A stretch of DNA of 64,000 bases, from the IMG/VR virus record IMGVR_UViG_3300025133_000049, positions 30,788-94,787 of that record. One strand, given 5' to 3'. The notes below the pieces were generated by a model. The model was not told the DNA's origin, did no database searches, and was given only the letters and a program-made list of their open reading frames with translations. Every line of letters begins with the position of its first letter. Positions within the stretch are counted from its first letter, which is position 1. Of this stretch, positions 19,798-51,072 are shown piece after piece. A program made the translations under genes and the position numbers. The DNA is from a virus.

Positions 19798-20420
19798 ACT
19801 ACGATAATATAGAAGTTGTACTTGACATGGTAATACGTACATTCAAATTACGAGAATGGCAATATGACATAGAGGATTGGGTAGAAGATGTAGCAGAGGC
19901 TTTACGATTTATTGGAGCATCATCTGTTTATGAGGAAGCTATTTTAGATGTTGAAGTAAATAACTTCGCAGCTAAGATTCCTATTGACTGTATTGCTATA
20001 AAATATGTAGATGAACCTAGTAAACCTTGGAAGAAATCAGGAAGTTTTATTCAAGTAGATGATGTAGACGGTACAATGGTTCAGATAGTTTACACTAAAA
20101 TGCCGGTAGATGTTAGAGGATATCCACTAGTTCCGGATAATGAAGTTGTTAGAAAAGCTATAATGTGGTATATAGTGTGTAACTTAGTTCTACAGGGGGA
20201 AATAAAAACTATCAATTATCAATTAGCAGATAAAAAGTGGAACTGGTATTGTGGGTCCGCTAGAGCTGATTTAAATTCACCTTCCCTTAATAGTTGGGCC
20301 GGCACTGCTAGAGATTTCAGAAGACTTAATCCAAGCAAGGATCAACATAGTTTGAATTATACAGGCGTAGGTAAACGCAACTCCATCAACAGAGATGGTA
20401 AAAGACAAGATATAAGATGA
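19794..20420 (+). CDS. tail tubular/ring protein (P22 gp4-like)
   Basis: EDWVEDVAEALRFIG, GYPLVPDN and WNWYCGSA motifs; immediately upstream of the muzzle gene. Confidence 0.75.
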   Translation: MNYDNIEVVLDMVIRTFKLREWQYDIEDWVEDVAEALRFIGASSVYEEAILDVEVNNFAAKIPIDCIAIKYVDEPSKPWKKSGSFIQVDDVDGTMVQIVYTKMPVDVRGYPLVPDNEVVRKAIMWYIVCNLVLQGEIKTINYQLADKKWNWYCGSARADLNSPSLNSWAGTARDFRRLNPSKDQHSLNYTGVGKRNSINRDGKRQDIR

Positions 20421-28938: not shown

Positions 28939-31900
28939 ATGGCCATAGATCAAGATGCTACTAAAGATTTAAAGATGATTAACCCGGAACCGTCTCCAAG
29001 TGATTCGGCTTTTGAGGCCATGTTTGATTCAGCAAAGAGAACAGGAAGTTCTAGACCTGTTCCTACAAGTGCAGCCGCACAACAGAAAGCTATTAAAGGA
29101 ATGCAAGCAGATATCTTCTTTGATCAATCAGTTCAAGAGGGTAGTAGAGATCAGAAGCTAGATAAGTATGCTTCTTCTTTCGAAGATAAGAATGCAACCC
29201 GAGCTAGAAACCAAAATGAAGCTATCAAAGGTATCAAAGCTATTGGTGGAGGTTTAATTCAGGGTGGGCTTATCGTAGGTGAGCAGTTAGGTTATGTAGC
29301 AGATCTAAAGAATACTGCCAAGATGTTCAGTGATGCTGAAGATATGTCAGGTAACTGGTGGTCTAACATGTTTAGAGATGCTCAAGATAGTTTGAGAGAA
29401 TCTGATACGTTTAAAATTTACGAGAGTGGTACTGACGAGAACAGTATCCTATCTCAGATATTCAAGTGGAGTTCATTAGAGGGAGCTATCTCGTCCGCCG
29501 TAGGATTCGGTGTATCAGGATTAGGGGCAGCTTCCGTTGTTTCTAAGCTAGGTGCTTTAAAACAATTTGGTAAATTAGCGGCTATGACTGATAAGGTCAT
29601 GGGTAATGTTGCAGCTCGAGGTTTAACTGGGGTCAAAGCAGCTAAGGCTATGCAAGGTGCTGTAGGATCAACAAGAGCGTTTACAGGTCCTCTAGCATCT
29701 TCAGCTATGTCTAACTTCTATATGGGTCAGTTAATGGCTACAGATACATACACTCAATCAATGGATGCCATTAGAGGTAAGATTGATTCAGGTGAGATAT
29801 CTGAATTAGATGCTCAGAAGATAGCAAATGAAAATGCAAAGAATGTAGTTGGATTGAACATGGCTTTGGCCACTACTTCTTTCCTACGATTTGGTAGTAT
29901 ATTTAAAAGAGGTGGTAGACTAAAAGGATTGGTAAAGGATCCTACTGCAATGGCGCAGTTAAAAGATATGGTTATCAAAGGTTCTCCTACAGCATTCGGA
30001 GAAAACGTTTACCAGGAGATGATTCAAATGGAACAGATCTACAAGACTTCATTAGAAGCCGGCGTAGCATCTAAGTATGGTTCTGGTTATTGGGATAGAA
30101 TGACTCAACTAGCTTTATCTAATCGAGCAATGCATGCAGGTGCTCTAGGTGTAGTAGGTGGGCCTATCCAATTTGCTATTATCCAAAAGCCTTTGATGAG
30201 AGAACAGCACAAACAACAAAAAGAAACGTTTGACAATCAACAAGCCTCCCGGAAGTATCACGCTACTATGGTAGAGAATTTAGTTAAAGGTGATATGACT
30301 GCTTTCATGGAGTTCGACAAAGCTAGAAACGAAGCCATCATTGCTGGTGACTTTGAAGCAGCTGCTCTTGCAGAAGATATGGGATTGATTCGTGAAGTAG
30401 TTAAGTCAAATGAATGGGGAACAATAGATTACCTAAGACGAGATATAGAAAATGAATTAAAGCACAAAGAAACTCCAGAGGGATACGATGCTAACTATAA
30501 AGAAAATGGACAGAGAGCATTAGAGATGTTGGACAAGGTTGAAAGTTATAACTATGCATATAGTCAGTTTGAAACTAAGTCAGATTTAATCTATACAAAT
30601 TTAGCGATAGATGCATTGAACTCGAAGAGAGTAGAGAACAATCAGAAACTTGTAGCCTCTGCGCAACAGGTTCAAGCCATGGCTGTACTAGAAGGTGTTG
30701 AAGTTAACTTCGATACTGACACAGGTAGGTTTACAAAAGTAAAGAGAGATAAGAATAGATTCGAAGGGTTATCAACTAAAGAAGCAGTAGCTCAAAGAAA
30801 CCTCGAGAAGACTCAGGACAAAGCTTATGACAAGTTCATGGAGAAGGCTGAGGATATAACCGGATACAAAGATGCAATCAAATCTGATGTTAAGTATACA
30901 AACTTAGGTCAGAAGTTATTAGATAAGTATTCTTATTTAAAAAGTGATAAGGCTCAAGAGAAGGCCCTCAAGATGAAGAAGGATCAGTATGATAATGCTA
31001 AAGAGAATATCAAAAAAGCTGACGCTGAAGATAAAGCTGCAGCTACTGAAAAGAAAAACTCAGGCTTAACTCCTTTCTCAGTTGTTAAAGCAAGAGCTAA
31101 TAAAGAAACTGCTGAAGAGAAGGCGGTTAGAACTAAAGCTTGGGATGCTGAGGTGCAAGGTGTTAACACTCCTAGAGAGGGAAACACATTTACATCTAGA
31201 GATCAACAAGGTGTATCTAGACTTTATAGTAAGGGGGATATGTTGAGATCTAATGATGGTAGATATTTTAAAGTAGATACTCAAGCCGGCGCTGCTAAGA
31301 ATGCTAACCTAGCATCTTATGCTATGCCATTGGTATATGAAGTTACAGCTGAAGGTAAGAAACCTGGAGGTAAAGAGGATAGATGGATTAGATTTATTCC
31401 AGAAGATAATACATTCTTCAGACCAGAGGTTAAACAAGCTCATTATAATAGCAAAACTAAATCTTGGTATCATAAAGGTAACACACCTTTTGCCCCTTAC
31501 GTAGATGTTGACTCAGCTTTTAAACCAAACAATGAGTTAGCTCAGGAAGCTAGAAGACAAAAAGCTGCAGATGGTATTGCTTTAAGTGTAAATAATTTTG
31601 AGTTAGAAGCTAACCAACCAGGTGAGGGTCAACAAATTGTTGAAACAGAAATGGCTGCGGAGTATGACTTGAAGTCTTTGAACAATCCGTTGTTCCCAGG
31701 TGAATCCTATGAAGTTACTTTTAAATTAAATAAGCAACCTAATGGACAAACATTTGTTGATGTTTATAGAGGAGATAGTAAACTTACAAGATTAGATAGA
31801 CACTCTAACTTAAATCATCAAGTGATAGCACAAGCTTTACTTAAAGGTGAAGTTGCGGGATCTGTTATAGGTCACTACAGTAGTTCTAACAATCTGGTTA

Positions 31901-34900
31901 AACTTAGAAATGAAGATGGTACTTTTGTACAAAGTAGTATAGCTGAACTATCTAAAATGGATTCTAAGTATCTAGTTAACGGTAAGGTTCACTTTGCTAT
32001 CAACCCAGGAGAGTATGCTCAGAAAGAACCTGTAACGATGGCAGAAGATGGTACTATCATTACAGATAACAGAATAGAGCATACAGATGCAGATGGCGTT
32101 AAACATTCATTGAGCATTCCATATAGTTCTATGAAAAGTCCTGGAGATACTTACATGTTAATCATAGGGCCAGGTGGTCATATTATTCCTATAGCAACTA
32201 GAGGTAAGAAGCTAGCTGAGCTTGATAGTATGTCAGGAGAAGGAACTAGAGCTGATGATATAGTTAAAGAGGTTGCCCAGGTAACAGAAGAATTCATCAC
32301 AGAGGATATGTTAGAAGGTATGTCTGAATCTGAGTTCGATACAAACCTCAGAGCTACAATAGCTGTATCAAATAAATCTAGTCATGAACAAGCTCAAGAA
32401 TTTAGAAATCAAAAGATAGCTAAGCTTGATGAGCATTGGAGAGATTTCTCTAAGAAGATGGAGGAAACCATTTATCAAACAATTAAAAAGGACGGACGTA
32501 AGTGGAACTCTATAGGAACTACTCAGTCTGGTGAAAACATTTATCAAGCTACAGAATCCGGAACTAGAATTGTTAATCCTAACATGTTTAAGATTGGATT
32601 GTATGTAGATGAAAATGGAAAGTTCACTCCACAAATTCAAGAAGGAACTGGAACTACTAAAGTAAACTATACAAACCTATCTGAATCTGCTACTGAATTT
32701 ACATTAGCATTAGGAGATCGATTTGATAAAATAAGTTATGACAGATTCCTAGATTCGGGAGATGCTGCTACAAACAAAACTAATGCGGAGTATATATTAA
32801 ATGAATCCGGATTATCTACTGATTTAAATATCAGAAGACCTTTTGCTGGATCCTCAGCCACTATTAAAGTAGATGGTATGGATATAGCTGTTGAAGGAGC
32901 TGCAGTAGCAGACAAACATTTCACTAAGCATGACAGAGGTTCTATCGAAGCTATAACTAAACCTGCAGACGAAGCATTTAAGAAATCAACTATCGAAGAA
33001 CTAGATACATTTACTTCTTTCGAATCTACAGATGCTGACAGTATTGGTCAGTTGATGGGTGAAGAAGCTGGAGATGCTATATCTCATGTACTAGCATTCC
33101 TTGGAGATCTTGGGTTAGCTAACATGCCTAAAGTCAATAAAGAATTTAAAGACTTTATCAATAAAGAAGTTGAGGTAACTGAATATCAAGACAGTTTAAA
33201 ATATGCTGAGGCCGCTGGTTTCAAAGGGGAGAATGCAGTAATGGCCGCTAAGGTTCATTCATTTCTTACAAACTTAACTGTAGATATTAAAAATAACAAA
33301 CAAGCTTTATTCACAAAGGCTAATCAAAGCATGAGTGAAAAAGAAATTCAATTAGAGAACCATACTTTCAAAAGAGGAGCTCAAGTTTATTCTAAGAAAC
33401 ACGGGAAAGGTACTATTACCAAAACTGTGAAGAATGGTTATTACTTCATGAAGAACTACAAAGGTGATACTAAGAAAGTTTGGGCCGCTGATGTTGTTAC
33501 TTTAGATAGTAAGTACACTGAATTATTTAAAGCTCAAAGAAAACTTGCTAAGATGGATCCAGCAGATACTGGATATAAAACCACTAAAGCAACTGTAACT
33601 AGATTGGAAGCTAAGTATCTTAAACACTCAGCTGTTCCTTCTAATGAAACTGTTAATGATGGACCTAAAGTTACAGCTACTCCTGCAGTTAGTACTAAAA
33701 AGTGGACTACTGGAAGCACCAGTTTAACTATTACAGATGCTCATGATAGAGTTGCTACAGTTATGGCTACCTATGGTGGAATATCTGCAAAAGGTAATGA
33801 ACTAGCTGCTCAAAAGAAAGCCAATGGAGAGAAGCTTGGGTTGACTAGGGATGAAGCTACAAACTTCCATAAGTTATTGGAAGATAATATAATATTCACT
33901 GAAGCTGAATTATTAGATCTAAAAAGAAAAGCTGCTGACTTAGGAGCTAAACACGGCAATGAGGTTCTAGCTAATCAATCTGAGAACTTCATAGCTCTAA
34001 ATGAGATCTATAAAAATATCAAAGCTAACACTGATATGACAAAAGCTTATCCTACTTTACAAGTAGCTAAGGTAAACAAAAGAGGTGTTACAACTAAACT
34101 GAATTATGCTCCTATCTCAATGCTTAACACAGGGTTACCTGAGATGGGATCTACAAAATCTATTACATCTCCGTTTAGTGCTGGAGAACTTGGTGGATCA
34201 TTCAAAGCGGTTACTACAGCTATGCAGAATGTTTTAAAAACTATGGAAGCAATGGAAGCTCTAGAAGCTACCGACGGAGTTGTAACTCCAGCTGAAGTAG
34301 CTCCTTCTGTAGAAACTAAGACAGCACCTGCTGAAGCGCCTGGTAAAAAGATAACTATAGAAACTACACCTAAAGCAGATTCAGTTGCTGATGTATTTAA
34401 ATCAAAAGGATTAAGTCCTGCCTTAGCAGAACAAGTTACTCAGTTAACAGATAATCAACAGTTTGAGTTAAAACAAGCTATGGATTTATTTGAAGGTATG
34501 GAACAACCACTGCCATCTACATTAGAAGAAATTATGGAAGGACCTAAGTTCAAATCTGGGGATGCTGTTACATTAAGTAAAGCAGACTTCCACGCGGAGG
34601 TAGTAGCGGCTAAAGCTATGCTACCACAAGTTCCGTTTAAAGTTGTAGAGAATGTTGTAGCAATGGTAAATAAATATGGTACCAAAGCAATTGGGGCTTA
34701 TCACCAAGGTGTTGTAACTTTAGTTGAAGGTGCTAGAAAAGGTACAGCTTATCATGAAGTATTTCATGGTGTAGCAGATCTTCAATTACGTCCATTCGAA
34801 AAGCAAGCAATTGCTGAGGAGATGGGTTATCAAAAATGGAACTTAGAGTTAGAAGAGAGGTTAGCTGATATGTTTGCCGAGTATGTGGTAAATCATCAGG

Positions 34901-35172
34901 ATACTTCAATAGTAGGTAAGGTTAAACGGTTCTTCCAAGGTTTACTGGATTGGTTTAATGGAACTAGAACTCCTGAACTAACTAGACAGATATTTGAAAA
35001 GACCGCCACAGGTGGGTACGCTTCTTCTACTAGTCTCAATTATTTATCTAATATTGAGAATCATGTAAGAAAGTTTAGTACGATGGATGCCTTTCAAAAT
35101 TCGCTATCTCAAAAAGAATCAGTAACTTTACGGAATCTTATGAACAACAAAAGAATTAAAATAGTTTGCTAA
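28939..35172 (+). CDS. giant virion cargo protein with N-terminal hydrophobic helices and C-terminal zincin metallopeptidase
   Basis: HEVFH (34753-34767) plus downstream EERLAD zincin motif; 2077 aa; directly upstream of the RNAP. Confidence 0.85.
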   Translation: MAIDQDATKDLKMINPEPSPSDSAFEAMFDSAKRTGSSRPVPTSAAAQQKAIKGMQADIFFDQSVQEGSRDQKLDKYASSFEDKNATRARNQNEAIKGIKAIGGGLIQGGLIVGEQLGYVADLKNTAKMFSDAEDMSGNWWSNMFRDAQDSLRESDTFKIYESGTDENSILSQIFKWSSLEGAISSAVGFGVSGLGAASVVSKLGALKQFGKLAAMTDKVMGNVAARGLTGVKAAKAMQGAVGSTRAFTGPLASSAMSNFYMGQLMATDTYTQSMDAIRGKIDSGEISELDAQKIANENAKNVVGLNMALATTSFLRFGSIFKRGGRLKGLVKDPTAMAQLKDMVIKGSPTAFGENVYQEMIQMEQIYKTSLEAGVASKYGSGYWDRMTQLALSNRAMHAGALGVVGGPIQFAIIQKPLMREQHKQQKETFDNQQASRKYHATMVENLVKGDMTAFMEFDKARNEAIIAGDFEAAALAEDMGLIREVVKSNEWGTIDYLRRDIENELKHKETPEGYDANYKENGQRALEMLDKVESYNYAYSQFETKSDLIYTNLAIDALNSKRVENNQKLVASAQQVQAMAVLEGVEVNFDTDTGRFTKVKRDKNRFEGLSTKEAVAQRNLEKTQDKAYDKFMEKAEDITGYKDAIKSDVKYTNLGQKLLDKYSYLKSDKAQEKALKMKKDQYDNAKENIKKADAEDKAAATEKKNSGLTPFSVVKARANKETAEEKAVRTKAWDAEVQGVNTPREGNTFTSRDQQGVSRLYSKGDMLRSNDGRYFKVDTQAGAAKNANLASYAMPLVYEVTAEGKKPGGKEDRWIRFIPEDNTFFRPEVKQAHYNSKTKSWYHKGNTPFAPYVDVDSAFKPNNELAQEARRQKAADGIALSVNNFELEANQPGEGQQIVETEMAAEYDLKSLNNPLFPGESYEVTFKLNKQPNGQTFVDVYRGDSKLTRLDRHSNLNHQVIAQALLKGEVAGSVIGHYSSSNNLVKLRNEDGTFVQSSIAELSKMDSKYLVNGKVHFAINPGEYAQKEPVTMAEDGTIITDNRIEHTDADGVKHSLSIPYSSMKSPGDTYMLIIGPGGHIIPIATRGKKLAELDSMSGEGTRADDIVKEVAQVTEEFITEDMLEGMSESEFDTNLRATIAVSNKSSHEQAQEFRNQKIAKLDEHWRDFSKKMEETIYQTIKKDGRKWNSIGTTQSGENIYQATESGTRIVNPNMFKIGLYVDENGKFTPQIQEGTGTTKVNYTNLSESATEFTLALGDRFDKISYDRFLDSGDAATNKTNAEYILNESGLSTDLNIRRPFAGSSATIKVDGMDIAVEGAAVADKHFTKHDRGSIEAITKPADEAFKKSTIEELDTFTSFESTDADSIGQLMGEEAGDAISHVLAFLGDLGLANMPKVNKEFKDFINKEVEVTEYQDSLKYAEAAGFKGENAVMAAKVHSFLTNLTVDIKNNKQALFTKANQSMSEKEIQLENHTFKRGAQVYSKKHGKGTITKTVKNGYYFMKNYKGDTKKVWAADVVTLDSKYTELFKAQRKLAKMDPADTGYKTTKATVTRLEAKYLKHSAVPSNETVNDGPKVTATPAVSTKKWTTGSTSLTITDAHDRVATVMATYGGISAKGNELAAQKKANGEKLGLTRDEATNFHKLLEDNIIFTEAELLDLKRKAADLGAKHGNEVLANQSENFIALNEIYKNIKANTDMTKAYPTLQVAKVNKRGVTTKLNYAPISMLNTGLPEMGSTKSITSPFSAGELGGSFKAVTTAMQNVLKTMEAMEALEATDGVVTPAEVAPSVETKTAPAEAPGKKITIETTPKADSVADVFKSKGLSPALAEQVTQLTDNQQFELKQAMDLFEGMEQPLPSTLEEIMEGPKFKSGDAVTLSKADFHAEVVAAKAMLPQVPFKVVENVVAMVNKYGTKAIGAYHQGVVTLVEGARKGTAYHEVFHGVADLQLRPFEKQAIAEEMGYQKWNLELEERLADMFAEYVVNHQDTSIVGKVKRFFQGLLDWFNGTRTPELTRQIFEKTATGGYASSTSLNYLSNIENHVRKFSTMDAFQNSLSQKESVTLRNLMNNKRIKIVC

Positions 35173-35173
35173 C

Positions 35174-38100
35174 ATGGCTTGTAAAATAGAAAAAGTATCT
35201 GCAGAGAATGGTAAGGATTCATTATTATATAAAAGTCTAACTGCCAAATACCCGGAATCAATAGCGTTAACCAAGTATATAGATATCATGTCTGAAGCTG
35301 AAGGTAATGCTAAGATATATGGTAAAGATAAAAACGGGGAACCTGTAGCACAAGTTGATGGACCTAAGTTTAAGTTAGCTGAATTTAATTCTTACCAAGA
35401 ACAAATTGACTCAATGGAGTTGATGAGTTCTATGTTAGTTAGTGAATTTGCAAATACATTAAGTATTAAGGACCCATCTAAATTAGCGGGATTTGACTTA
35501 GCTAAACTAGACGGTGATCTAGTGGCTTTATCTGCAGCTGTTGCAAACGTTAGAAATAATTTAAAGCGGATGATGTTCAAAGCTCCTAGAGATGTGCAGG
35601 AGATTTACAAAACTATTATTCTTAATATGCCTCAGTATCTCGAACCTAGAGGCCCTCTTACTAGAAAACTAGCTGAGAGAGGTGTACTAATCAGAGTTAG
35701 AGATGAGTCAGTAACTGATCTTTTAGAACAAGGGTTAGAAGCTGAAAATGGTACAGTTGACTCTGATGTTGTTCGTGTTTCTTATGAGAGAATCTATGAT
35801 ATGGAAACTCTTGAAAGTTCTGCAATGAGATCTATTTCTGAAGAAGTTAAAACTTATATCAGAGGAAAAGAAAAAGTAAATGATAAAGGAGAATCAGAAT
35901 TAAGTTTATTAGGAACTCCAAGGCCAATTGAAGCAGGAGAAGCTATCTCAGATATGTTTACAGTTCTTGCAGGTGTTCAAAATCCTAGTGAAATGTTGGA
36001 AAGATTAGAACAAGCTGTAGGTCTCAAACCTCATCTTATGCCTATCTATTCTGACTTAATGAATGAACAACCTAAGCAGATTAAAGTTAATAATAAAACG
36101 ATAGAATATAAACCTATTACTGCTCAATTGTTTAGTACATTCGCTAAGCAAGATTATAACATGCACTCTGTTGTAGAAAAGATTGGTGGTGGTGTAATGA
36201 TCACTGCAGCTAATGCATACAATACAAGAAACAATCTTAAAAATAGATGGAAACAACAAACTTCTGATATAGCTCAAACTGATCAGACTAGAAATATAAA
36301 TAAATTAAATTCTTATACCAATCGAGCTGATTTAAATAGAAAGCTTAGACAAGGTAACAGTTTAGCATTAAAATCTACAGCTGCTTATATGAGAGCTGCA
36401 GGTTTTCATAATGTTACTCCAGCTATCTTAAAGGATATCGTAGATACATTCAATACAAAATCACAACCACCAGCATTTAAAAATCAAAGTGCGGGAGCTG
36501 TTCTTGTGAACATGCTTAACCTTGTAGCCAAGCCGGCCTTACAAGGAAAGGATATATTTAAAAATGTAGGTGAAACAATGGCTGAGACTAAATACTTAAA
36601 TCTCTTAGCTGAACATTCTACAAAATATGAAACAGATGTAACTGCAGGAGCCTTTAAAAACTCAGCAGGTAAAACTACACACCCTTTAAATAAAGGGTCA
36701 GAAGCTCAAGATATATGGTTAAGATTGAACAGGGATACAAAGTATGCTAATCAGTTCTTAAATGATCCTATGTATGAGAACACTAAAATATTAAATACTT
36801 TATTTAGTAATCCAGAAGGATTAAATGTAACTTCATTCTCTACATTGAGTAATGAAAGTGTAACTAACTCTGGTGTAGCTTTTGGTCAGTTATCTAATTA
36901 TGATGCGATCAATCTTAAACTGAATAGTTACTTCCAAGGTAAAGATTCATTCCATGCATATGGGCCAACACAAGCGGATAGAGGAAATATTAGTGCTTTA
37001 GTTTTACCTAAGATTTCTCAAGATGAAAAGATATTTGATCAGAGTGGTACAGTAATATCACCTGATATTAAAGAGTGGGTTTTCAATCAAGTCAAAGGTG
37101 AACTACAAAGAGTATTAAACACTAAAGATTCCGGCTATAAAAATCATAATAAAAACTCTCAGATGTTTAATTTATTTGAAGGTTTAAATGAGATATTTAA
37201 AGCGGAGGATGTGAACATGTCTAACATCGATCAGTTGGCCACCAGGCTAGCTGTGACAGCAGAACAACATCTTTATGCTGCAATACAAAGCGACATTGCA
37301 TACATGGCTAAGAAGGGAGTTATAGAGCTCGACGTATCTGGTGGAGTTAGATCATATAAATTAACTAATGATGCAATTGTAAGTGATAACGCGCACTCAA
37401 AGGGGAAGATCACCAATAAAGCGCTTAACGAGTTCTTGGTGAATAATTTTATTTACACATACGAACAAACATTATTCTACGCAGGTGACCCTGCTTTCTT
37501 TAAAGGAAAAGTAGATATGAACAAGAGGATGGGATTAGCCTTTACTCCAGGTGAAAAAGTAACAGTAGGTGATGCTACAGGTATAGGACCAACAGCTAAA
37601 ATTAAAATACTTCAGGAAGCTGAGATGAAGTCTGAGATGGCCGAAGTATATAAAGAACTGTTAGGAGAAAAAGCTGGTAAGGCTTTCTTACAAACAGAAG
37701 TAGCCGATGGTGCTGGTTTTGTTAGCTTAGATCGATATGGTGACCTTGCTTTAAGTAGAGGTAAACACTCTATAGCTATGTTAGAGTATATTGATGAGAT
37801 GAGCAGATGGGATCCTAAAAAACCTATGCCATCAACAGAAGCTGTTCTAGAAGTATACAAAGGATTCTATTTTAGATTACATGCAGATGAAACAGGTGTG
37901 AGACCTTTTAACTTAAAGTATTCTACACTCCCAGTATTCCCTGCATTCTTTGAACAAACTAAAGCAGATGGATCACTCAAGTACCCAGGTATGGCTAAGA
38001 TATCACAAGAACTTAGAAGTGGTAGAGCTGATGAAGTTGTAATGGGTTCTGCTGTAAAAGTTGGTGGATCTAATTTTGCAACATTAGAAACTCTAGCTGG

Positions 38101-41100
38101 AACAGAAGCTACAGTAATATACAATGAATCATACAGGTTCCCACAGGATTCTCCAACTAAAGATAAAACTGAAGATAACTTCGGTTCTCAGATGAGAAAA
38201 CTTATAACATCTAATCAAACTCCTGCAGGTAAACTGTCCGTGTTTGGTGAGACTGTTAGTGAAGGAGCTAGTATAGGATCATACAATGATGCTATTACTA
38301 AAATAGTAGGTAATGCTGCGACCAGGTTAAATAAAAGATTCCTCAATGGGGATTCTGCACCGAAAGTTGCTGAGCCTATGACCATGGAGAAAGCTAAGGC
38401 TACTCTTGAGAAAGTTCAAAAGAACACAAAGTTTATTAAACTTGAAGATGATGGTAGTGGGTATGTGAATACTAAAACAGGAAAACGTTACCAAAGAGTT
38501 ACAGAGTTTATATCTACCAAGGAGACTAAGATGAATGATGTCTTAAAATCTGCAGTTAACATCGGTAATAAATTGGATGTATTAACTAGGGATTTCTTTG
38601 ATGGGAACTTAAAAAGTGCAAAGGAATATGATGTTGCAGACTCACATATAGTTAAAGGTTATGTTAACCAACTCAAGGAAGTGAAAGCATTCATGGATAA
38701 GAGAGGTGAGGTGGTGATGGCTAATGATATAGTTTTATATAATGACGAGATAGGTGTTGCTGGTACCGTGGATTTAATCACATATGATAAAGATGGTGAG
38801 GTGAGAATCTACGATATGAAGACTATGAGAGGTAATCAACTTACAGAATCTTATGCCGCAGACCCAACTGTTTCTAAATATGATACTACTGTTTATGGAG
38901 ACTCGAACAGAGAGAAGCATAGAAAACAGTTAAGCATGTATAGAATATTGCTTAATAATACTCATGGGATTAAAGCTAAGGAAACGGCTATTATTCCAAT
39001 TGAGGTTATGTATAAACAAGGGGAAACTAGAACTAGTAGAATGAATCTACTTGATGGTATTCCAGTAAAACCTTTATCTAAAGTAGGGGAAGCTGAATTG
39101 ATTAATCTTGATCCAAATAAAGGGTATCATAAAGGAGAACTTAATACAGCTGAACTTGTTTCTAGTATCCTAGATAGTGCTGAAGCTAGTGGTTTTGTAA
39201 ACTTAGATTACTTCTTAGAAGCATTAACAGTTAAAGATGGTGAACTTACTTTACCTTTAAATTATCCTACGATTAAATTTAAAACAGATAGTTTAATTAA
39301 CTCTGCTTATAAAAAAGGAGCAGGTAGAATTAAATTAGCAGGACACTCTGCAGTACAGGTATCTAGTTTAGGTATGGTGGCCAATAAGGGGGAGTTCTCT
39401 ACAGATAGTGATTTAAAATTTGTTAGATTTTCTAAAAAAGGAAGTAACAAAGAATTGAGTCAACTTGATTCTATGGAGGTTTCCAGGAGAATTAGAGCGG
39501 GAGAAGATGTATCAGGTGAGTTTAAAACATTACCGGCACAAGTTAGAGTTAGCCCTAAGTTCTTCAAGAACAAACTTAAAGAGATTGCTAAAGGTAGAGT
39601 TAATAAAGCGGCCATTGGTGAAGCTTTGACTGGGTATAGAAATCATCTTAAAGAATCTGGATTATCTGAAGCACAGAAACAAAATAAGGTTAAAGCATAT
39701 GAAAGTTTCTTAAACAAAAAAGAAGCAAAGAAAGCTTATGATAAGTTAGCTAAAACTTTAAAAGATGATAAAGGTAATTGGGATGCATCTAAATTAGGAG
39801 AAGTAGCAGACATAGTTCTATACAGAATTCCTACACAAGCAAAGAACTCAATGTTATCGGGTACGATAATTGGTTTCCTTCCAGAAGAGTCTGGGGCGAC
39901 TATCCAAGTGCCATCTGAAATAGTTGACCAAGCCGGATCGGATTTTGATATTGATAAGGTTTATATTGAAACAACTGATTTCAATGTTAGTGAAGGACAA
40001 ATCAAAAGAGTTATGCCAGACTTTAACGAGTATGGTGAATTAGGAGAGAACAGTGACAGACAATTGAAAGCTTATATTCAAGAGTATCATAAAGCTGTTT
40101 TAAGTTCTACAAATCATGTAAGTGAATTAATGACGCCAAACGATACTATTGTCCTCAGTAAACTTGTAGAAGAGTTTAATATGGGTGATGATGTATTCAA
40201 CGGTAACTGGGCATCATTAGCATTACAAGAAACATTTAGATCTAATAACAAAGCAGGTAAGGAAATGATTTCTATTTCATCTGTAGCATCTGTTGCACAT
40301 GCGATAGCAGAACAATTAGGTGTTGAATCTGTAGGCGATATTAAGATAGCAGGTAAAACCTTAGAGTTAGGTTCTATCTTAAATTCTGATGGAACTAGAA
40401 TATCTGATGAGATAGGTGAGATACAAAATGCTGCATTGGATAATGCAAGAGATCCTCTATTAGGTAAATTAAATATTGACGCATTTACAGCATCAGTTGT
40501 TATGTTGTTAGTATCTGCAGGACATGGTTTAAAATATGCAGCCACTGTAGTTAATGATCCTATCATCAGAGATTTAGCTAGTGAATATCAAAAACACACT
40601 AGACATTCATCTCCTAGGATAGCTTATGAAACTGCTGTTGCAAATGTTAAAAAGAGATATGCAATTAGAGGTAAGCTTCCTAAAGTTAAGCTTGCTGATT
40701 ACTCTTTAGAGAATGCTGAGAACAATAGAGTAGATCAATCAGTAGAAGCTAGAAAAGAAGCTTTAGTTGTATTTGACGAGTTAAAGAAAATTGGGGATAA
40801 ATTATCTAAGTTCCAAACATCTTTGAACTTTGATTCTAAAGGAACTCCTTCTACGTCTCACGGTTTAGTATCTAAAGCTGTAGATATTGCAAGTGTACCT
40901 GGAACTTATTTAAATACAATGACATTGAATGGTGTGGGTCCACTAGCTGAGATAGGATTAACTCAAGAAATTAAAGATGCTGATTCTTTATTTAAAGTAG
41001 ATCCGGATTTATATGAAACCTCTCAGATAGGTGCCTTTGAAAAAGGTGTTATCATCGATCCATTAATAGTGAATAGAAAGATTTCAGTAGCTGCTTCTGT

Positions 41101-42322
41101 AGTTGGAGCCGATATAGTTAAACTTGCTAGATCATTAAACATATTTGATGAAAACGGTTTGACACATGTATTCAATGAGTTCGATACTTTCTTATTACAG
41201 AACCCTGTTGCATTCAAAGATAGTTCTACTGACATAGCTAATATGACTAGTTCTGAATTAGCTTCGTTAACAGATCCATCAAGTGCATTATCTCCTTCTA
41301 ACCTTCTAAGGTCATATAGAGGTAATCTTAAAGAGGGTGAATTGGAGAATAAGTTCACTAAAGGTTTAGACATAGTTGCAGAAGGTGGTCATGAATATAT
41401 CACGATCAACAATAATTTATCTGTAGGTATGACTCCTGAAGGACAACAAGAAGTTATGGTATTCTTCGAAGATTTAATGGCTTCTGATAATACTGCTGAA
41501 GCAACTCTTGCTAAGCAATTAACTAAGTATGCATTAGCTGTTAGTGGTTATTCTAAATCATTCTCAAGCTTTATGCACTTACTTCCTCCATCAGCTCATG
41601 TTGCTTACACAAATAGTGTAGAGACATTTAGAAATATGGGAGATCAATATGATAATGCTTCTGCATTTCATACTGGGAAGTTCTTAGATATGTATGTTCA
41701 AAATAATGCAGATAGATTAAAAATTCCAGTGAAGAAAGATTTAACTTCATTTGGTGAATTTGAAAAAGCTCCTACATATGTTTTCAAATATATATCTAAA
41801 GATAATAAGCAATTGCATAAATGGTCAAAAGAGAACTTAAGTTATGACAGAATAGGTCAAAGAGGTCTCAAAGGTTTAGTTAAAGAGTATCATGATGGTG
41901 AATCAATGTATCACTCTGATGGTAGTATGGCCCAATTCAACGCTGAAGGAGCTAAGCTTAAAGCTACATCTCAACAGAAAGGTAATATACAATTACTACA
42001 AGCAGAGCTGATGGTGATCAGTGAAGTTATCTCCTCTCTTATGGCAGAGGATATAACTAATGCAGACCAAGCAGCTAAAGCTGTAACTAAAGTACAAAGA
42101 AAACTTATAGAACTATCCGGTAAAGAAGATACCCAGACGTTTAGAGATTTCATTGGTAAACAAGTACCAACCATTAAAAAGTTTGTAGATAAACGAATTA
42201 ATAGAGGTCAAGACATTACTTTCCAAGAAACTTGGAAAAGAAAAATGGACGGTCAAATGGTAGAAACTCTACCTTACGAACCGTTCTTTAGAAAATTAAT
42301 CCAGAAAATAAAAGAATGTTAA
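35174..42322 (+). CDS. virion-packaged DNA-dependent RNA polymerase (phi14:2 gp66-like) with inserted PD-(D/E)XK nuclease domain
   Basis: GSDFDIDK catalytic motif (DFDID 39941-39955); YRIPTQ, DGAGF, KYS, SAVKVG, GSQMRKL and DNARDP motifs; nuclease insert at ~38350-39135. Confidence 0.93.
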   Translation: MACKIEKVSAENGKDSLLYKSLTAKYPESIALTKYIDIMSEAEGNAKIYGKDKNGEPVAQVDGPKFKLAEFNSYQEQIDSMELMSSMLVSEFANTLSIKDPSKLAGFDLAKLDGDLVALSAAVANVRNNLKRMMFKAPRDVQEIYKTIILNMPQYLEPRGPLTRKLAERGVLIRVRDESVTDLLEQGLEAENGTVDSDVVRVSYERIYDMETLESSAMRSISEEVKTYIRGKEKVNDKGESELSLLGTPRPIEAGEAISDMFTVLAGVQNPSEMLERLEQAVGLKPHLMPIYSDLMNEQPKQIKVNNKTIEYKPITAQLFSTFAKQDYNMHSVVEKIGGGVMITAANAYNTRNNLKNRWKQQTSDIAQTDQTRNINKLNSYTNRADLNRKLRQGNSLALKSTAAYMRAAGFHNVTPAILKDIVDTFNTKSQPPAFKNQSAGAVLVNMLNLVAKPALQGKDIFKNVGETMAETKYLNLLAEHSTKYETDVTAGAFKNSAGKTTHPLNKGSEAQDIWLRLNRDTKYANQFLNDPMYENTKILNTLFSNPEGLNVTSFSTLSNESVTNSGVAFGQLSNYDAINLKLNSYFQGKDSFHAYGPTQADRGNISALVLPKISQDEKIFDQSGTVISPDIKEWVFNQVKGELQRVLNTKDSGYKNHNKNSQMFNLFEGLNEIFKAEDVNMSNIDQLATRLAVTAEQHLYAAIQSDIAYMAKKGVIELDVSGGVRSYKLTNDAIVSDNAHSKGKITNKALNEFLVNNFIYTYEQTLFYAGDPAFFKGKVDMNKRMGLAFTPGEKVTVGDATGIGPTAKIKILQEAEMKSEMAEVYKELLGEKAGKAFLQTEVADGAGFVSLDRYGDLALSRGKHSIAMLEYIDEMSRWDPKKPMPSTEAVLEVYKGFYFRLHADETGVRPFNLKYSTLPVFPAFFEQTKADGSLKYPGMAKISQELRSGRADEVVMGSAVKVGGSNFATLETLAGTEATVIYNESYRFPQDSPTKDKTEDNFGSQMRKLITSNQTPAGKLSVFGETVSEGASIGSYNDAITKIVGNAATRLNKRFLNGDSAPKVAEPMTMEKAKATLEKVQKNTKFIKLEDDGSGYVNTKTGKRYQRVTEFISTKETKMNDVLKSAVNIGNKLDVLTRDFFDGNLKSAKEYDVADSHIVKGYVNQLKEVKAFMDKRGEVVMANDIVLYNDEIGVAGTVDLITYDKDGEVRIYDMKTMRGNQLTESYAADPTVSKYDTTVYGDSNREKHRKQLSMYRILLNNTHGIKAKETAIIPIEVMYKQGETRTSRMNLLDGIPVKPLSKVGEAELINLDPNKGYHKGELNTAELVSSILDSAEASGFVNLDYFLEALTVKDGELTLPLNYPTIKFKTDSLINSAYKKGAGRIKLAGHSAVQVSSLGMVANKGEFSTDSDLKFVRFSKKGSNKELSQLDSMEVSRRIRAGEDVSGEFKTLPAQVRVSPKFFKNKLKEIAKGRVNKAAIGEALTGYRNHLKESGLSEAQKQNKVKAYESFLNKKEAKKAYDKLAKTLKDDKGNWDASKLGEVADIVLYRIPTQAKNSMLSGTIIGFLPEESGATIQVPSEIVDQAGSDFDIDKVYIETTDFNVSEGQIKRVMPDFNEYGELGENSDRQLKAYIQEYHKAVLSSTNHVSELMTPNDTIVLSKLVEEFNMGDDVFNGNWASLALQETFRSNNKAGKEMISISSVASVAHAIAEQLGVESVGDIKIAGKTLELGSILNSDGTRISDEIGEIQNAALDNARDPLLGKLNIDAFTASVVMLLVSAGHGLKYAATVVNDPIIRDLASEYQKHTRHSSPRIAYETAVANVKKRYAIRGKLPKVKLADYSLENAENNRVDQSVEARKEALVVFDELKKIGDKLSKFQTSLNFDSKGTPSTSHGLVSKAVDIASVPGTYLNTMTLNGVGPLAEIGLTQEIKDADSLFKVDPDLYETSQIGAFEKGVIIDPLIVNRKISVAASVVGADIVKLARSLNIFDENGLTHVFNEFDTFLLQNPVAFKDSSTDIANMTSSELASLTDPSSALSPSNLLRSYRGNLKEGELENKFTKGLDIVAEGGHEYITINNNLSVGMTPEGQQEVMVFFEDLMASDNTAEATLAKQLTKYALAVSGYSKSFSSFMHLLPPSAHVAYTNSVETFRNMGDQYDNASAFHTGKFLDMYVQNNADRLKIPVKKDLTSFGEFEKAPTYVFKYISKDNKQLHKWSKENLSYDRIGQRGLKGLVKEYHDGESMYHSDGSMAQFNAEGAKLKATSQQKGNIQLLQAELMVISEVISSLMAEDITNADQAAKAVTKVQRKLIELSGKEDTQTFRDFIGKQVPTIKKFVDKRINRGQDITFQETWKRKMDGQMVETLPYEPFFRKLIQKIKEC

Positions 42323-46111: not shown

Positions 46112-47299
46112 ATGTATTACGAAGGAACTTTATCTACAGTAGAAGCTTTATTTGTTAGTAGAGCTCAACAGAAGATAGCAGAGCTAGGCGCTTCTCTTTC
46201 GGAACAAGCAAGTCGTGGTGATGTTGATCAGGAAGATTATCAGATATCTGTAGAATTACAGTATGCTATACAGGGTTTACAAAGCACGGTGAGTCCATGG
46301 ACTGAAGAGGAGAGATTACTAGTAGTCGATTTCTATACACTTAGAGCTCGATTAACTGTTTATGCTTATAGAGAATTATCATTTCTACCTACATATGTAG
46401 GAGGAAGTGAAGGAGATTGGGCTACCAGAGGAGAGCTTGCTATAGTTGATAATGCAGCTATAACAAGGGATCAGCAACAAGATGTAGCTAATCAGGATGA
46501 AAGGGATAGAATAGAAGAAGAAAGTATAGCCAGAGATGAGGCTTTAGCTGATCTTATAGAGAGAGCTGCAGTTGAAAATGAAATCGTATCGGCAGAGCAG
46601 CACGGCGGTGTTAATGAAGGTGAGACTTTTGTGGTAGGTACTCCGTTAGAAATTATCATAGATAAAATTTTATCCGGTACACCTACAGTATCTAATTTCA
46701 CATTTGATGAACATGTAGATTATGTTGTAGTAGGAGATAGTGTTTCAATCACAAGGTTCTCTTGGGACCATACCGGAGATCCGCAAGGTTTATTATTATT
46801 TGACTCAGAGGGTATTATGGGTAATGTTACGCCGGTTGATATTGGTGAATATATTCCTCCAGCCCCTATTGTATATACTTTAAATACTTTTAAAACTATC
46901 ACCTGGACATTAGCAGGTAATAATATAGACAGCGCAACTAAAGAAATAAAAGGTCTATACAATTCTTATTATGGTAAGAAAGCGCAAGGTGATGATACAC
47001 CTATAGTTGTTACAGAGTCAGATGTATTAGCAGGTACTTCTCAATTAACTGAGACTGATGTATCCGTTACATTTACAGCAGATACCACTAATGGAGAATT
47101 AGGTTGGATAGCCGTACCAACAACACAATCAGGATCTGATTACCTCAAATGGGGTACAGATACATCGAATACAGACTGGATAAGTTCTATCAGTTTTATT
47201 GAAAAACAAGGGACTATAACAGTCAACGGAGTTACGTATACAATATACAGATGGAGATATCGATCTCCTCTTAATCGCGACATACAACTTAGTAAATAA
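46112..47299 (+). CDS. putative virion structural protein (coiled coil plus beta-rich C-terminus)
   Basis: ORF track; coupled to the tail fibre gene. Confidence 0.6.
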   Translation: MYYEGTLSTVEALFVSRAQQKIAELGASLSEQASRGDVDQEDYQISVELQYAIQGLQSTVSPWTEEERLLVVDFYTLRARLTVYAYRELSFLPTYVGGSEGDWATRGELAIVDNAAITRDQQQDVANQDERDRIEEESIARDEALADLIERAAVENEIVSAEQHGGVNEGETFVVGTPLEIIIDKILSGTPTVSNFTFDEHVDYVVVGDSVSITRFSWDHTGDPQGLLLFDSEGIMGNVTPVDIGEYIPPAPIVYTLNTFKTITWTLAGNNIDSATKEIKGLYNSYYGKKAQGDDTPIVVTESDVLAGTSQLTETDVSVTFTADTTNGELGWIAVPTTQSGSDYLKWGTDTSNTDWISSISFIEKQGTITVNGVTYTIYRWRYRSPLNRDIQLSK

Positions 47300-50200
47300 T
47301 GGCAAAAGAACTTAATCATGGGTTGCACATATTAGCGCCCGAACCGGTAGATATTAGATTAGTTAAAGACGTGTATGGTGATCTTTCAACAATTCCTGTA
47401 ATATTTATAGGGTTGAAAGTATTTGTTATAGCTGATAATAAAGAATACAGATATTACTCAGATGGGTGGAAAGAATGGATCCCAGGTGGTGCAGAAACTC
47501 CAGAGTTAACCGCACAGTGGGGCAGTATCACAGGAGATATAAATCTTCAGACTGATTTAGTTAATGCCTTAAATCTTAAGTTCGATAAAACCGGAGGACA
47601 AATTACAGGTCCCGTATACAATACACATACATTTGATGGAGCAAACTTTATATTACTGGGATCAGTTCCAAGTAATCAACAACCTGAAGGCGGGGGTATC
47701 CCAGATGCGCCGGCCGATGGTGTAACATATGGTAGAGAAGATAATGCTTGGGTAGATATTCTACTCAGAGCTGAGGGAGTTCTCGGTAATCCCGGTGTAG
47801 ATGGGTATGTATTATCTTCTACAGCTGCGGGTGTTAGATCTTGGGTAGTACCTCAGTCAGGTCCCCAAGGGGAACAAGGTATACCAGGTGAAGATGGAGC
47901 AACTGGTGCGGATGGTCCACAAGGGGCTGATGGAGCAACAGGGGCTACAGGTGCAACGGGCTCACAAGGTATTCAAGGTATTCAAGGGGATATAGGTCCT
48001 CAAGGTGCTCAAGGAGAACAAGGTATTCAGGGTGAACAAGGTATCCAAGGAGAGCAAGGTGTTCCCGGTGATGATGGTATATCAGGGGATCCTTCAGATG
48101 GAACAACATATGGTAGAAAAGATAATAATTGGAGTAAAGCAGTAGGTTCACATATCACAGGAGAACCTGCAGGTGCTGGGGTGTATGACAATGAGATATA
48201 CTTAACCCAAGCGCAGTACGATGCAGGTCCAATAAATGCAACAACAATATATCACATCACTGACGCAGTTGATAACGGTGGAGGTGGTGGAACAGAAAGT
48301 CCATTAACAACTAAAGGAGATGTATGGGTATACAGCTCAGCTAACACAAGATTACCTGTGGGATCAGCCGGTCAGATATTATCTGCAGATGCTAATGAAG
48401 GTACAGGACTTAAATGGATTGATGCACCACTTACAGGTATCGGAGGTTCTATCGCAAATGATCAAGTAGCTATAGGAGATACTACAGCAGATACAATAGT
48501 AGGATCATCCGGATTAACTTTTAATGGTACATTACTTAATGTAGTAGGTACAATAGCTGCAGATAATGCAGCATATTCTACACCAGTAGGAGAACCTACA
48601 GGATCTGCAAGAATAGGTAACATAGTATATTTGACCCAAGCACAATATGATGCAGGGCCAACTAATGCTACTACAATTTATAAAATAACAGATGCTCCTG
48701 GGGATGGTGGTGAAGGTATTACGAGTCCACTTACAACTAAAGGAGATCTTTGGGGGTTTTCTACAACTGATGCTAGAATTGGAGTAGGAACTAATGATCA
48801 AGTTCTTACAGCTGATAGTACACAAGCATCCGGTGTAGCTTGGAAAGATGCTACTGGAGGTAGTGGCGGCGGTGATGTTTACCTAGCTAATGATAATATA
48901 TTTACAGGATCGAATGAGTTTAAAAACACTGCAACATTTTTTGGTAACACAGGTGTTAATGAAGGTATTACAGTTAATATCCTTGATGGACTAGGTGTGC
49001 CAAGAGCTCTGATGGGAGCAGGCAATCAAGGTTTTTCTATTACTGGAAATCCAGGAGTTACAATAACTACACTATCTACACAATTATCTTATCAAGGTCT
49101 GGACCCTACTGACGATACAGGTATTGGGGATAGAGGATATAATGATGGTAGGTACTTAATGGATTCTCCTAGTGATGGAGGCACTTATGGTAGAAAGGAT
49201 GGTGCTTGGGCTATTGTACCGGAAGCAGCGGATTTAAGTAACTACGTAACATTAAATGGGACACAAACAATAACTGGAGCCAAAACATTTTCTTTAGTAG
49301 TGTCTGGGGTAACTCCCACACTACCAGCTCATTTAGCTACAAAAGCATATACAGATTCTATAGCTGGTGGAACTATTCCAGAAGCACCTGAAGATGGTTC
49401 TACTTACGGACGTAGAGATGCTGCATGGATTCAAGTGGCCGGAGGAGGTGGTGGTGATGCTTATCTCGCTAACTCACAAACGTTTACAGGAGCTAATACA
49501 TTTACACAAGTAATAACAGGTGCGGCTCCTTCACTTCCTTTACATTTATCAACTAAACAATATGTAGATGATAGTGTTATTGCGGTTCAGTACACCCATC
49601 CAGCATACACAGCAAGAAGTATTAATACTTCCGGTGCAGAGGTAATAGATGTATTCACATCAAACTCTCTCGGACATGTGACAAATGCAACTAAGAGAAC
49701 AATGACATTAGCTAACCTTGGGTATACAGGAGCAACTAATGCAAACTATATAACTAATAACAATCAGTTAACTAATGGAAGGGGGTATATAACTGGGATA
49801 TCAAATTATGTAACTACTGATACCACACAATCTATAACAGGGACTAAGACTTTCACTAAGGTTGTTACAGGTGTTACACCTACAGCAGCATTACACTTAG
49901 CTACGAAAGCCTATGTAGATGCTAACGTAGGAGGTGGTGGAACTATTGAAGGAACTATAGCACTTAATCAAGTTGCGTATGGTTCTGGTACAGATACAAT
50001 TCAAGGGTCCTCTAATTTTACGTATGATGGAACATATCTTAAGAATAGATATTTTAAATCATCAGGAGTTGATTACAGATTTTATGATGGAACTTCAAGT
50101 TCATTAGTTCTTTCTTTTAAAAAGTATGCAGGTTGGTCTACTGATGTAGCTTCTACCTTATTACAAATGGAAGCTGGATCTGCTTTAATAACAGGACCTA

Positions 50201-51072
50201 GTGGAACAAACTTCACTCATATAGGTATATGTACAGGAGGATTAAAGTTAGGTACAGGAACAGCAGATACTATTTCAGTTCCTACTGAGATGTTAGATGT
50301 AACTGGTAATGGTAAATTCAGCGGAGGTTTAGAAATAGTTACTGATCCTACTTCTGGGGATGATGTTGGTAATAGAGATTATAATGATGCAAGATACTTA
50401 AGAGGAGATGTAGCAGATACTCAAACAGGTGGTATTATTATGAATGGTGATATTACTATGAATGATGATAAGCTACTTAGATTTGGTACCAGTGGTGCAG
50501 AATCAACTATATCTTCAGACGGAACAGATACTATTTGGAAACTAAAAAGAAATAGTCTTGAAATACAAAACTTAGGTACTGCTGCTGTATTTAGTATAGA
50601 TCAGAGTGGTAATGTAGCACAAACAGGACATCTTACATTAAACAATGATAAACTTATTAGTTTAGGTCCATCAACAATAGGGTATAATTCAAGTAAAACA
50701 AGAGTAGATTTTAATTTTGAATCAGCTGCTTCTTTAAATTTTTATGACGGAGCACAAGCTAAGTTTGAATTCGAGAAGTCTACAGGATACTTTACATGTG
50801 TTCAGAGTTTTGCTACGTCCTCTAGAGAAAAGAAAGAGAATATCACAACTTACATGGGGTCAGGTCTAGATGTTGTTAGAAATATCAATGTAGTTACATA
50901 TGACTTTAAAGATGGTGGAGCAATGAATAACATTGGTGCAATATCTGAAGATGTTCCTACAGAGATATCCTCTGAGGATAGAAAATCAATATCAATTAAC
51001 CAACTTGTGTTCTTACAAGCTAAGGCTATACAAGAACTAGAGGCTAGAATAATTGAATTAGAAAACAAATAA
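47299..51072 (+). CDS. long tail fibre with collagen-like repeat and C-terminal intramolecular chaperone (peptidase S74-like)
   Basis: Gly-X-Y run at 47860-48093; repeated P.DG.TYGR.D..W modules; TSSREKKENI..IGAISEDV..KAIQELEARI C-terminus. Confidence 0.88.
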   Translation: MAKELNHGLHILAPEPVDIRLVKDVYGDLSTIPVIFIGLKVFVIADNKEYRYYSDGWKEWIPGGAETPELTAQWGSITGDINLQTDLVNALNLKFDKTGGQITGPVYNTHTFDGANFILLGSVPSNQQPEGGGIPDAPADGVTYGREDNAWVDILLRAEGVLGNPGVDGYVLSSTAAGVRSWVVPQSGPQGEQGIPGEDGATGADGPQGADGATGATGATGSQGIQGIQGDIGPQGAQGEQGIQGEQGIQGEQGVPGDDGISGDPSDGTTYGRKDNNWSKAVGSHITGEPAGAGVYDNEIYLTQAQYDAGPINATTIYHITDAVDNGGGGGTESPLTTKGDVWVYSSANTRLPVGSAGQILSADANEGTGLKWIDAPLTGIGGSIANDQVAIGDTTADTIVGSSGLTFNGTLLNVVGTIAADNAAYSTPVGEPTGSARIGNIVYLTQAQYDAGPTNATTIYKITDAPGDGGEGITSPLTTKGDLWGFSTTDARIGVGTNDQVLTADSTQASGVAWKDATGGSGGGDVYLANDNIFTGSNEFKNTATFFGNTGVNEGITVNILDGLGVPRALMGAGNQGFSITGNPGVTITTLSTQLSYQGLDPTDDTGIGDRGYNDGRYLMDSPSDGGTYGRKDGAWAIVPEAADLSNYVTLNGTQTITGAKTFSLVVSGVTPTLPAHLATKAYTDSIAGGTIPEAPEDGSTYGRRDAAWIQVAGGGGGDAYLANSQTFTGANTFTQVITGAAPSLPLHLSTKQYVDDSVIAVQYTHPAYTARSINTSGAEVIDVFTSNSLGHVTNATKRTMTLANLGYTGATNANYITNNNQLTNGRGYITGISNYVTTDTTQSITGTKTFTKVVTGVTPTAALHLATKAYVDANVGGGGTIEGTIALNQVAYGSGTDTIQGSSNFTYDGTYLKNRYFKSSGVDYRFYDGTSSSLVLSFKKYAGWSTDVASTLLQMEAGSALITGPSGTNFTHIGICTGGLKLGTGTADTISVPTEMLDVTGNGKFSGGLEIVTDPTSGDDVGNRDYNDARYLRGDVADTQTGGIIMNGDITMNDDKLLRFGTSGAESTISSDGTDTIWKLKRNSLEIQNLGTAAVFSIDQSGNVAQTGHLTLNNDKLISLGPSTIGYNSSKTRVDFNFESAASLNFYDGAQAKFEFEKSTGYFTCVQSFATSSREKKENITTYMGSGLDVVRNINVVTYDFKDGGAMNNIGAISEDVPTEISSEDRKSISINQLVFLQAKAIQELEARIIELENK
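47860..48093 (+). repeat. collagen-like Gly-X-Y repeat
   Basis: GPQGEQGIPGEDGATGADGPQG...GEQGIQGEQGVPGDDG. Confidence 0.9.

Follow-up and report, generated by a model that had tools for sequence, protein, structure and literature searches.

In the human gut no viruses are more abundant than the crAss-like phages, which also occur commonly in the sea, and the start of their infection is poorly understood. Megadaltons of giant 'cargo' proteins are packed in their capsids, and among the activities of these, to our knowledge, only that of the polymerase has been tested. Presence in the virion has been shown by mass spectrometry for gp66 of phage phi14:2 (bioRxiv 10.1101/2020.03.07.982082) and for gp47, gp49 and gp50 of crAss001, gp47 being viewed as capsid cargo (PMC10172136). 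A PDDEXK nuclease domain was noted in the large transcription-block proteins of crAss-like phages by Yutin et al. (2021; PMC7886860), and the observation was repeated in a 2023 review (PMC10136315). Here we describe a locus in the last 64 kb (the window) of a 94,787-bp IMG/VR virus record, IMGVR_UViG_3300025133_000049 (CheckV completeness ~65%), which encodes a 2382-amino-acid (aa) RNA polymerase (RNAP) of the gp66 type, hereafter P0001. A nuclease domain of the same family is inserted in frame in P0001, in a helix–helix loop of the Connector between the two DPBB barrels. The domain family has been known at the annotation level since 2021; the novelty lies in the Connector site and in the repeated change of position within one RNAP clade. 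Because the family was already annotated, the locus represents a new architectural variant rather than a new kind of system, and opens no new category. The polymerase gene and the parts that define the insertion site are as follows.

35174..42322, + strand: gp66-type crAss-like virion RNA polymerase gene (P0001, 2382 aa), from phmmer against the PDB, a model match and synteny
37997..38305, + strand: DPBB1 block (aa 942-1044); the relatives' profile matches here and at gp66 1046-1154, and GSQMRK is aa 1004-1009
38261..38341, + strand: Connector helix before the insert, aa 1030-1056 (DSSP on a 711-aa model, helix 101-127, in a block with predicted local distance difference test (pLDDT) values of 75-84)
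38351..39130, + strand: inserted module, aa 1060-1319 (260 aa), nuclease domain with two predicted flexible linkers (alignment A2)
39146..39190, + strand: Connector helix after the insert, aa 1325-1339 (DSSP on the 711-aa model, helix 396-410, pLDDT 71-78)
39812..39973, + strand: DPBB2 block (aa 1547-1600), aligned to the DFDID stretch of gp66
39941-39955, + strand: catalytic DFDID, aa 1590-1594

When P0001 was compared with PDB sequences by phmmer, the sole match was 6vr4_A, which is phi14:2 gp66 (E 4.5e-22), over three stretches of P0001: residues 748-1064, 1547-1607 (with GSDFDIDK) and 1616-1812. Numbering in the 6vr4 chain equals the gp66 residue number plus 14, with DFDID at gp66 1361. 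A 711-aa AlphaFold2 (AF2) model around the active site (aa 930-1640) also had 6vr4_A as its top structural match (Z 13.3, root-mean-square deviation (rmsd) 4.1, 298 aa), and the next-best matches were RNAP beta-prime DPBB domains at Z ~6. This model was built on an alignment without nuclease rows (A4) and its nuclease part is of low confidence; the flanks alone were used. P0001 has the two DPBB domains with DFDxD in a single chain that characterize gp66-family RNAPs, and its core is intact on both sides of the insert, DFDID included. Within the clade formed by P0001 and its 21 closest RNAP relatives (alignment A2; 32-39% identity over the whole length), G1004, Q1006 and R1008 of DPBB1 are invariant, as are D1590, F1591, D1592, I1593 and D1594.

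The only run of at least nine residues private to P0001 in alignment A2 is aa 1060-1319, which is a gap in 21 of 21 relatives and whose flanks (RFLNG before, GELNTAEL after) align in all of them. The insert starts at D1060 and ends at H1319, followed by K1320-G1321-E1322. In a clade-profile alignment with gp66, N1058 lies opposite K1168 and K1320 opposite E1171. Since the Connector of gp66, which joins its two DPBB barrels, comprises residues 1095-1238 (bioRxiv 10.1101/2020.03.07.982082), these flanks place the insert in the middle of the Connector. The helix that precedes the insert aligns to gp66 ~1140-1166, also inside the Connector, and K1320 to S1330 correspond to gp66 1171-1181. In a 262-aa model of the insert, pLDDT is 62 in the first ten residues and falls to 56 and 33 past residue 250, and these low-confidence ends suggest a flexible linker on each side.

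A preliminary description of the window, made from its letters and open reading frames (ORFs), had proposed a nuclease domain inserted inside the RNAP, and this proposal holds: neither gp66 nor any of the 21 nearest RNAPs has a collinear counterpart of the segment. The strings it quoted all occur in the frame of ORF 35174-42322 (GSQMRKL at aa 1004, YQRVTEFI at 1106, IGNKLD at 1130, KQLSMYRILL at 1251 and KLAGHSAVQVS at ~1388). Its coordinates, 38350-39135, span nearly the same segment as 38351-39130, except that a start at 38350 is one base out of frame and gives stops. An intein or homing-endonuclease insert was also considered and rejected; the junctions have no Cys, Ser or Thr, there is no His-Asn end, and the model consists of the nuclease fold and linkers only.

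Within the insert, the nuclease core and its motifs were located as follows, with conservation counted on an alignment of 205 family members that are 30-55% identical overall.

38387..39097, + strand: PD-(D/E)XK (RecB-family) nuclease core, aa 1072-1308 (family profile E 2e-100)
38561..38599, + strand: motif I-like helix IGNKLDVLTRDFF, aa 1130-1142 (G1131 in 192/195, R1139 in 192/195, D1140 in 181/195)
38753..38776, + strand: motif II GVAGTVDL (from aa 1194), with predicted catalytic D1200 (kept in 200/201)
38804..38824, + strand: motif III RIYDMKT (from aa 1211), D1214-x-K1216 (D1214 in 200/200, K1216 in 198/201)
38915..38953, + strand: motif IV KHRKQLSMYRILL, with Q1252 (200/200) and Y1256 (199/200)

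Pfam PF12705 (PDDEXK_1) matches the segment alone at 26.0 bits (cut-off 22) and the whole 2382-aa protein at 21.2 bits, slightly below the cut-off; in a genome scan it scores 25.5 bits, at the nuclease place of P0001 only. PHROG 298 'exonuclease' matches the segment with E 2.2e-17, and with these scores and the 525 clusters described below a chance resemblance is very improbable. Sequence searches of the PDB with the segment alone or with a 20-sequence profile returned chance matches only, and it was fold comparison alone that tied the segment to solved nucleases. An AF2 model of the insert (20-row alignment) reached pLDDT 92.5 and a predicted template modelling score of 0.88. The Foldseek matches listed for it include AdnA, MGME1, Cas4, EXO5, AddA, lambda exonuclease, RecE, Dna2 and similar nucleases, and all of those listed are end-dependent PD-(D/E)XK nucleases or nuclease domains, with the exception of one repair endonuclease. 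VIA-align ranked MGME1 highest (Z 10.8, rmsd 3.5, 156 aa), followed by AddA (10.7), AdnA (9.7) and Cas4 (9.4, 7mi4_A), and at lower scores RecE (9.2), Dna2 (8.9), RecB (8.5) and lambda exonuclease (6.6); 50 of the 50 rows listed are PD-(D/E)XK nucleases. The PD-(D/E)XK fold that the preliminary description had read from the sequence is therefore predicted by the model, and the motif II aspartate, the motif III DxK and the QxxxY helix that it reported are intact, with D1200, D1214, K1216, Q1252 and Y1256 kept in at least 98% of ~200 members. Further residues (R1108, G1131, R1139, D1140 and Y1280) are 93-99% conserved in the family, R1108 in 190/192, and the family consensus at the motif I-like helix is IGTKxDxxxRDFF. 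Near-invariance of the catalytic residues despite 30-55% overall identity argues for a working enzyme, and the nuclease of P0001 is apparently active.

Together, the profiles and the model identify the insert as a predicted complete RecB-family PD-(D/E)XK domain, similar to MGME1, AddA and RecE and without an iron-sulfur (Fe-S) cluster. The label 'RecB/Cas4-like' used in the preliminary description was thus apt in its first half only. Cas4 or another Fe-S nuclease was rejected, as aa 1060-1319 contain zero cysteines and TIGR00372, with a cut-off of 65 bits, gives a score of 16; NCBIfam and PADLOC scans gave Cas4 matches below threshold only. The family profile finds a single copy over the 94.8-kb record, the one in the RNAP, and a comparison of ten smaller window ORFs with PHROGs revealed no further nuclease.

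To place the domain among its relatives, an exhaustive phmmer search was run against 1.84 billion cluster representatives. It matched 525 clusters at a threshold of E<=1e-3 and 232 at the stricter E<=1e-10, with lengths of 1300-6600 aa in nearly all cases, and the family is almost confined to giant crAss-like virion-cargo or 'transcription block' proteins. The carrier genes of cultured or named phages are giant and bear the annotation 'RNA-polymerase subunit' or 'hypothetical', as in crAss001 (gp47), DAC15 (gp61), IAS virus and Kolpuevirus. The nuclease of P0001 matches DAC15 gp61 with E 3e-22 by tblastn and 7e-50 by profile, and crAss001 gp47 with 9e-10 and 5e-36, respectively. A profile search of the phi14:2 genome found no member of the family.

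The position of the domain relative to three RNAP blocks was surveyed in 318 proteins, 208 of which carry it. Most carriers (138/208) are without a DFDID block. The domain is N-terminal in 49 (46 before DPBB1, and 3 before DPBB2 where DPBB1 was undetected), C-terminal of the bridge-helix block in 17, directly after DFDID in 3 and in the Connector in 1, which is P0001. The spacing between DPBB1 and DPBB2 is 503 aa in P0001, whereas across the 172 other RNAPs with both barrels its median is 191 and it never exceeds 298; among the 173 RNAPs in which both barrels were detected, the Connector site is unique to P0001. The arrangement was likewise seen in 0 of 80 IMG/VR loci. At 60 of these 80 loci the nuclease was not seen within +/-10 kb, although many are cut short or fragmented, so this is not evidence of absence. 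At many gut-derived loci (IMG/VR 3300045988 and others; L033-L037, L049-L053, L060-L067), the RNAP region is split into short ORFs under translation table 11. This fits the stop-codon reassignment and fragmentation reported in some crAss-like groups, and limits surveys that use the standard code. As to the distribution of the insertion, which the preliminary description had raised, the site is private to P0001 among the RNAPs surveyed, and the domain family is shared with many other crAss-like phage proteins.

Even close relatives differ in whether and where they carry the domain. In the RNAP clade of P0001, the 13 nearest RNAPs (2170-2250 aa) have no nuclease, five others carry it ~110-140 aa past the bridge-helix block, and three carry it after DFDID. 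At least four different nuclease sites occur within one clade of 2.2-2.5-kaa RNAPs. On an RNAP tree made without the nuclease columns, the nuclease states do not group together, and at least six changes are required by well-supported branches. P0017, with the nuclease after DFDID, is sister to P0215, which has none (97% support), and P0159 is sister to two nuclease-free proteins (98%). A tree of 189 nuclease domains has 78 of 186 branches open and contains long-branch joins, does not follow architecture (44 changes), and cannot separate a move from another site from a separate acquisition in P0001. A combined alignment of RNAP relatives and nuclease-only proteins (A3) was visibly misaligned and was discarded. 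The loop between DFDID and the bridge helix also holds unrelated inserts of 470-550 aa, at aa 1431-1904 of P0218 (Pfam PF25176 and PF13671) and aa 1446-2000 of P0221 (PF25176). Because these proteins hold other inserts there, the loop after DFDID appears to be a general hot spot for domain insertion.

Two genes upstream of the polymerase gene bear on its genomic setting.

20417-24277, upstream of the RNAP gene: crAss muzzle protein (PF25731 crAss_MUZ)
28939..35172, + strand: 2077-aa cargo protein, counterpart of crAss001 gp47 without the nuclease (HExxH block in common with gp47, E 2e-8)

After the muzzle gene come a gene for a cargo protein that bears a tail-lysozyme domain and then genes for giant proteins, in an order that matches phi14:2 g071 to g065. 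The P0001 gene thus lies in the muzzle/cargo/RNAP block expected of a gp66-family member. In gp47 the nuclease directly precedes the HExxH block; in the window's counterpart it is missing there, and the 2077-aa protein has no match to the nuclease profile. The HExxH (zincin-like) block of this protein, 'GTAYHEVFHG', lies at ~aa 1894-1996 (nt 34618-34926) and aligns to gp47 aa 2109-2219. Within the polymerase gene itself, Cys3 (35180-35182) is kept in at least 90% of the 22 sequences of alignment A2 and the C-terminal Cys2382 (42317-42319) is invariant. Between the Connector and DPBB2, window positions 39500-39800 (~aa 1440-1540) encode a Lys/Glu-rich stretch of predicted long helices (549-564 and 570-600 of the 711-aa model), which differs in length among relatives and matches Pfam NNH2 at chance level. 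Farther downstream, the 1257-aa protein encoded at 47299-51072 combines collagen repeats with a fibritin C-terminal region and ends as an endosialidase chaperone (Peptidase_S74); it is probably a tail fibre whose chaperone is auto-cleaving.

We hypothesize, with a probability of roughly 0.55, that the domain is a co-ejected DNA nuclease that works at the onset of infection independently of RNA synthesis. By analogy with gp66 and gp47, the nuclease would be packaged in the capsid and ejected with the polymerase into the cell, where it would reach the cytoplasm alongside the DNA and ahead of any phage gene expression. It would then act in a Mg-dependent manner on DNA ends or single-stranded DNA (ssDNA) at the very start of infection. 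Co-delivery with the polymerase would matter for this action, and geometry would not. A co-injected effector nuclease is favoured because the position of the domain is variable, its gain and loss are frequent, and the enzymes nearest to it in structure act on DNA ends or ssDNA. The domain is unlikely to need a fixed geometry with respect to the RNAP cleft, since it is found in a separate cargo protein, at either end of the polymerase and in at least three internal loops, and its loss from phi14:2, together with frequent gains and losses within the clade, suggests an accessory function. As to what that function is, we tentatively lean towards a part in host takeover or competition, in which non-phage DNA or exposed DNA ends would be degraded or resected; preparation of a template for the polymerase seems less likely than this, and unlikely in itself. 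The target would be either foreign or host DNA or the phage's own ends.

Several observations weigh against a co-ejected nuclease of this kind. Packaging and ejection of P0001 are expected solely from homology and synteny, and we found no paper in the literature that tests the function of the crAss PDDEXK domain family. In addition, a circular host chromosome offers end-dependent exonucleases no obvious substrate, and some form of restraint would have to spare the linear phage DNA that enters beside such a nuclease.

A different role is conceivable in that the enzyme would arrive together with the only linear DNA in the cell. The nuclease could resect terminal repeats 5'-3', as lambda Exo or RecE would, for annealing, circularisation or concatemer formation, and could shield the ends against exonucleases of the host. 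RecE (Z 9.2) and lambda exonuclease (Z 6.6) are among the structural neighbours, and the near-invariant R1108 could bind a 5'-phosphate. We regard this processing of the phage's own ends as doubtful, given that phages normally express such exonucleases early rather than package them and that the domain is dispensable in phi14:2. A tie to transcription is suggested by the locus itself, in which the two barrels forming the active site have the nuclease covalently built in between them, and by the confinement of the family to 'transcription block' proteins (PMC7886860). The nuclease might resect, nick or unwind the entering genome into an ssDNA template for the gp66-type RNAP, or process nascent RNA. 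The preference of the phi14:2 RNAP for ssDNA, to which the preliminary description had appealed in suggesting a template role, is indeed reported, recombinant gp66 strongly transcribing ssDNA in vitro (bioRxiv 10.1101/2020.03.07.982082). The suggestion keeps some plausibility, weakened by the variable position of the domain, which in 138 of 208 carriers has no RNAP motif in the same protein, and by phi14:2 itself, whose ssDNA-preferring RNAP works in a phage without any family member. The 13 RNAPs closest to P0001 also lack the domain, and resection of DNA for early genes would cost the phage genome one of its strands, so that coupling to transcription appears unlikely. Quite improbable, too, is a nuclease functionally wired to the polymerase, which would either resect or open the incoming genome for an ssDNA template or be freed after ejection, when the zincin protease of the cargo would cut the linkers and leave a two-subunit (beta-like plus beta-prime-like) RNAP.

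The scatter of gains, losses and moves on the RNAP tree, the four or more sites in one clade, and a nuclease-domain tree that departs from architecture would also be explained by a selfish mobile domain, spread by homing-like gene conversion between co-infecting phages into many in-frame sites of tolerant giant proteins. RecB-family QxxxY nucleases, however, are end-dependent and not site-specific, and the insert has neither intein or Hint features nor Cys, Ser or Thr at its junctions. Guanine-cytosine content and skew are uniform across the gene, with no foreign island at the insert, and the domain shares no more than 55% identity with its closest relative, from which it follows that the insertion is not recent; we consider selfish spread very unlikely. 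That the domain is an inactive structural or DNA-binding spacer of nuclease origin is barely credible. Apart from the common experience that decay is frequent in inserted domains, nothing specific in its favour was found, and the retention of the five active-site residues across such divergent members speaks against it. The co-ejected nuclease remains our preferred explanation.

An active site kept near-invariant in cargo, in a domain that is nonetheless mobile between proteins, points to a second enzymatic activity delivered at DNA entry. P0001 also indicates that the loop between the two barrels tolerates a folded domain of 260 aa, and provides a natural fusion for testing the interplay of nuclease and polymerase.

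An RNA polymerase with a built-in nuclease has parallels elsewhere. Influenza PA and the bunyavirus L protein bring a PD-(D/E)XK-type endonuclease into a virus-carried RNA polymerase; these are N-terminal cap-snatching RNA endonucleases of RNA-dependent polymerases from eukaryotic viruses, and their likeness to P0001 is one of description only, with no homology or functional link claimed. Among DNA nucleases, Cas4 has the PD-(D/E)XK core in common with the P0001 domain (Z 9.4 to 7mi4_A) and gives weak profile matches, whereas the P0001 domain has no cysteines or 4Fe-4S cluster and no CRISPR context. The nucleases without an Fe-S cluster, namely human MGME1, the AddA, AdnA and RecB domains, RecE and lambda exonuclease, share motifs II and III and QxxxY with it. 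The fold is common to the insert and the MGME1/AddA/AdnA/RecB/RecE group (Z 10.8-8.5, rmsd 3.5-4.7 over 156-173 aa), while identity to RecB-family nucleases is 9-13% and the P0001 domain is embedded in a polymerase rather than in a helicase or a free protein. With phi14:2 gp66 (6vr4), P0001 shares a single-chain RNAP architecture of two DPBB domains and DFDID, a Connector, a bridge-helix block and the order of the genes; gp66, however, has 2 residues at the site where P0001 has 260. The nearest counterparts of the nuclease are those of crAss001 gp47 and DAC15 gp61, which belong to the same domain family and have the same giant virion-cargo setting and conserved active site, but in which the domain is carried close to the C-terminal end of a separate cargo protein, before HExxH, rather than inside the catalytic core of the RNAP, in the Connector, as it does in P0001.

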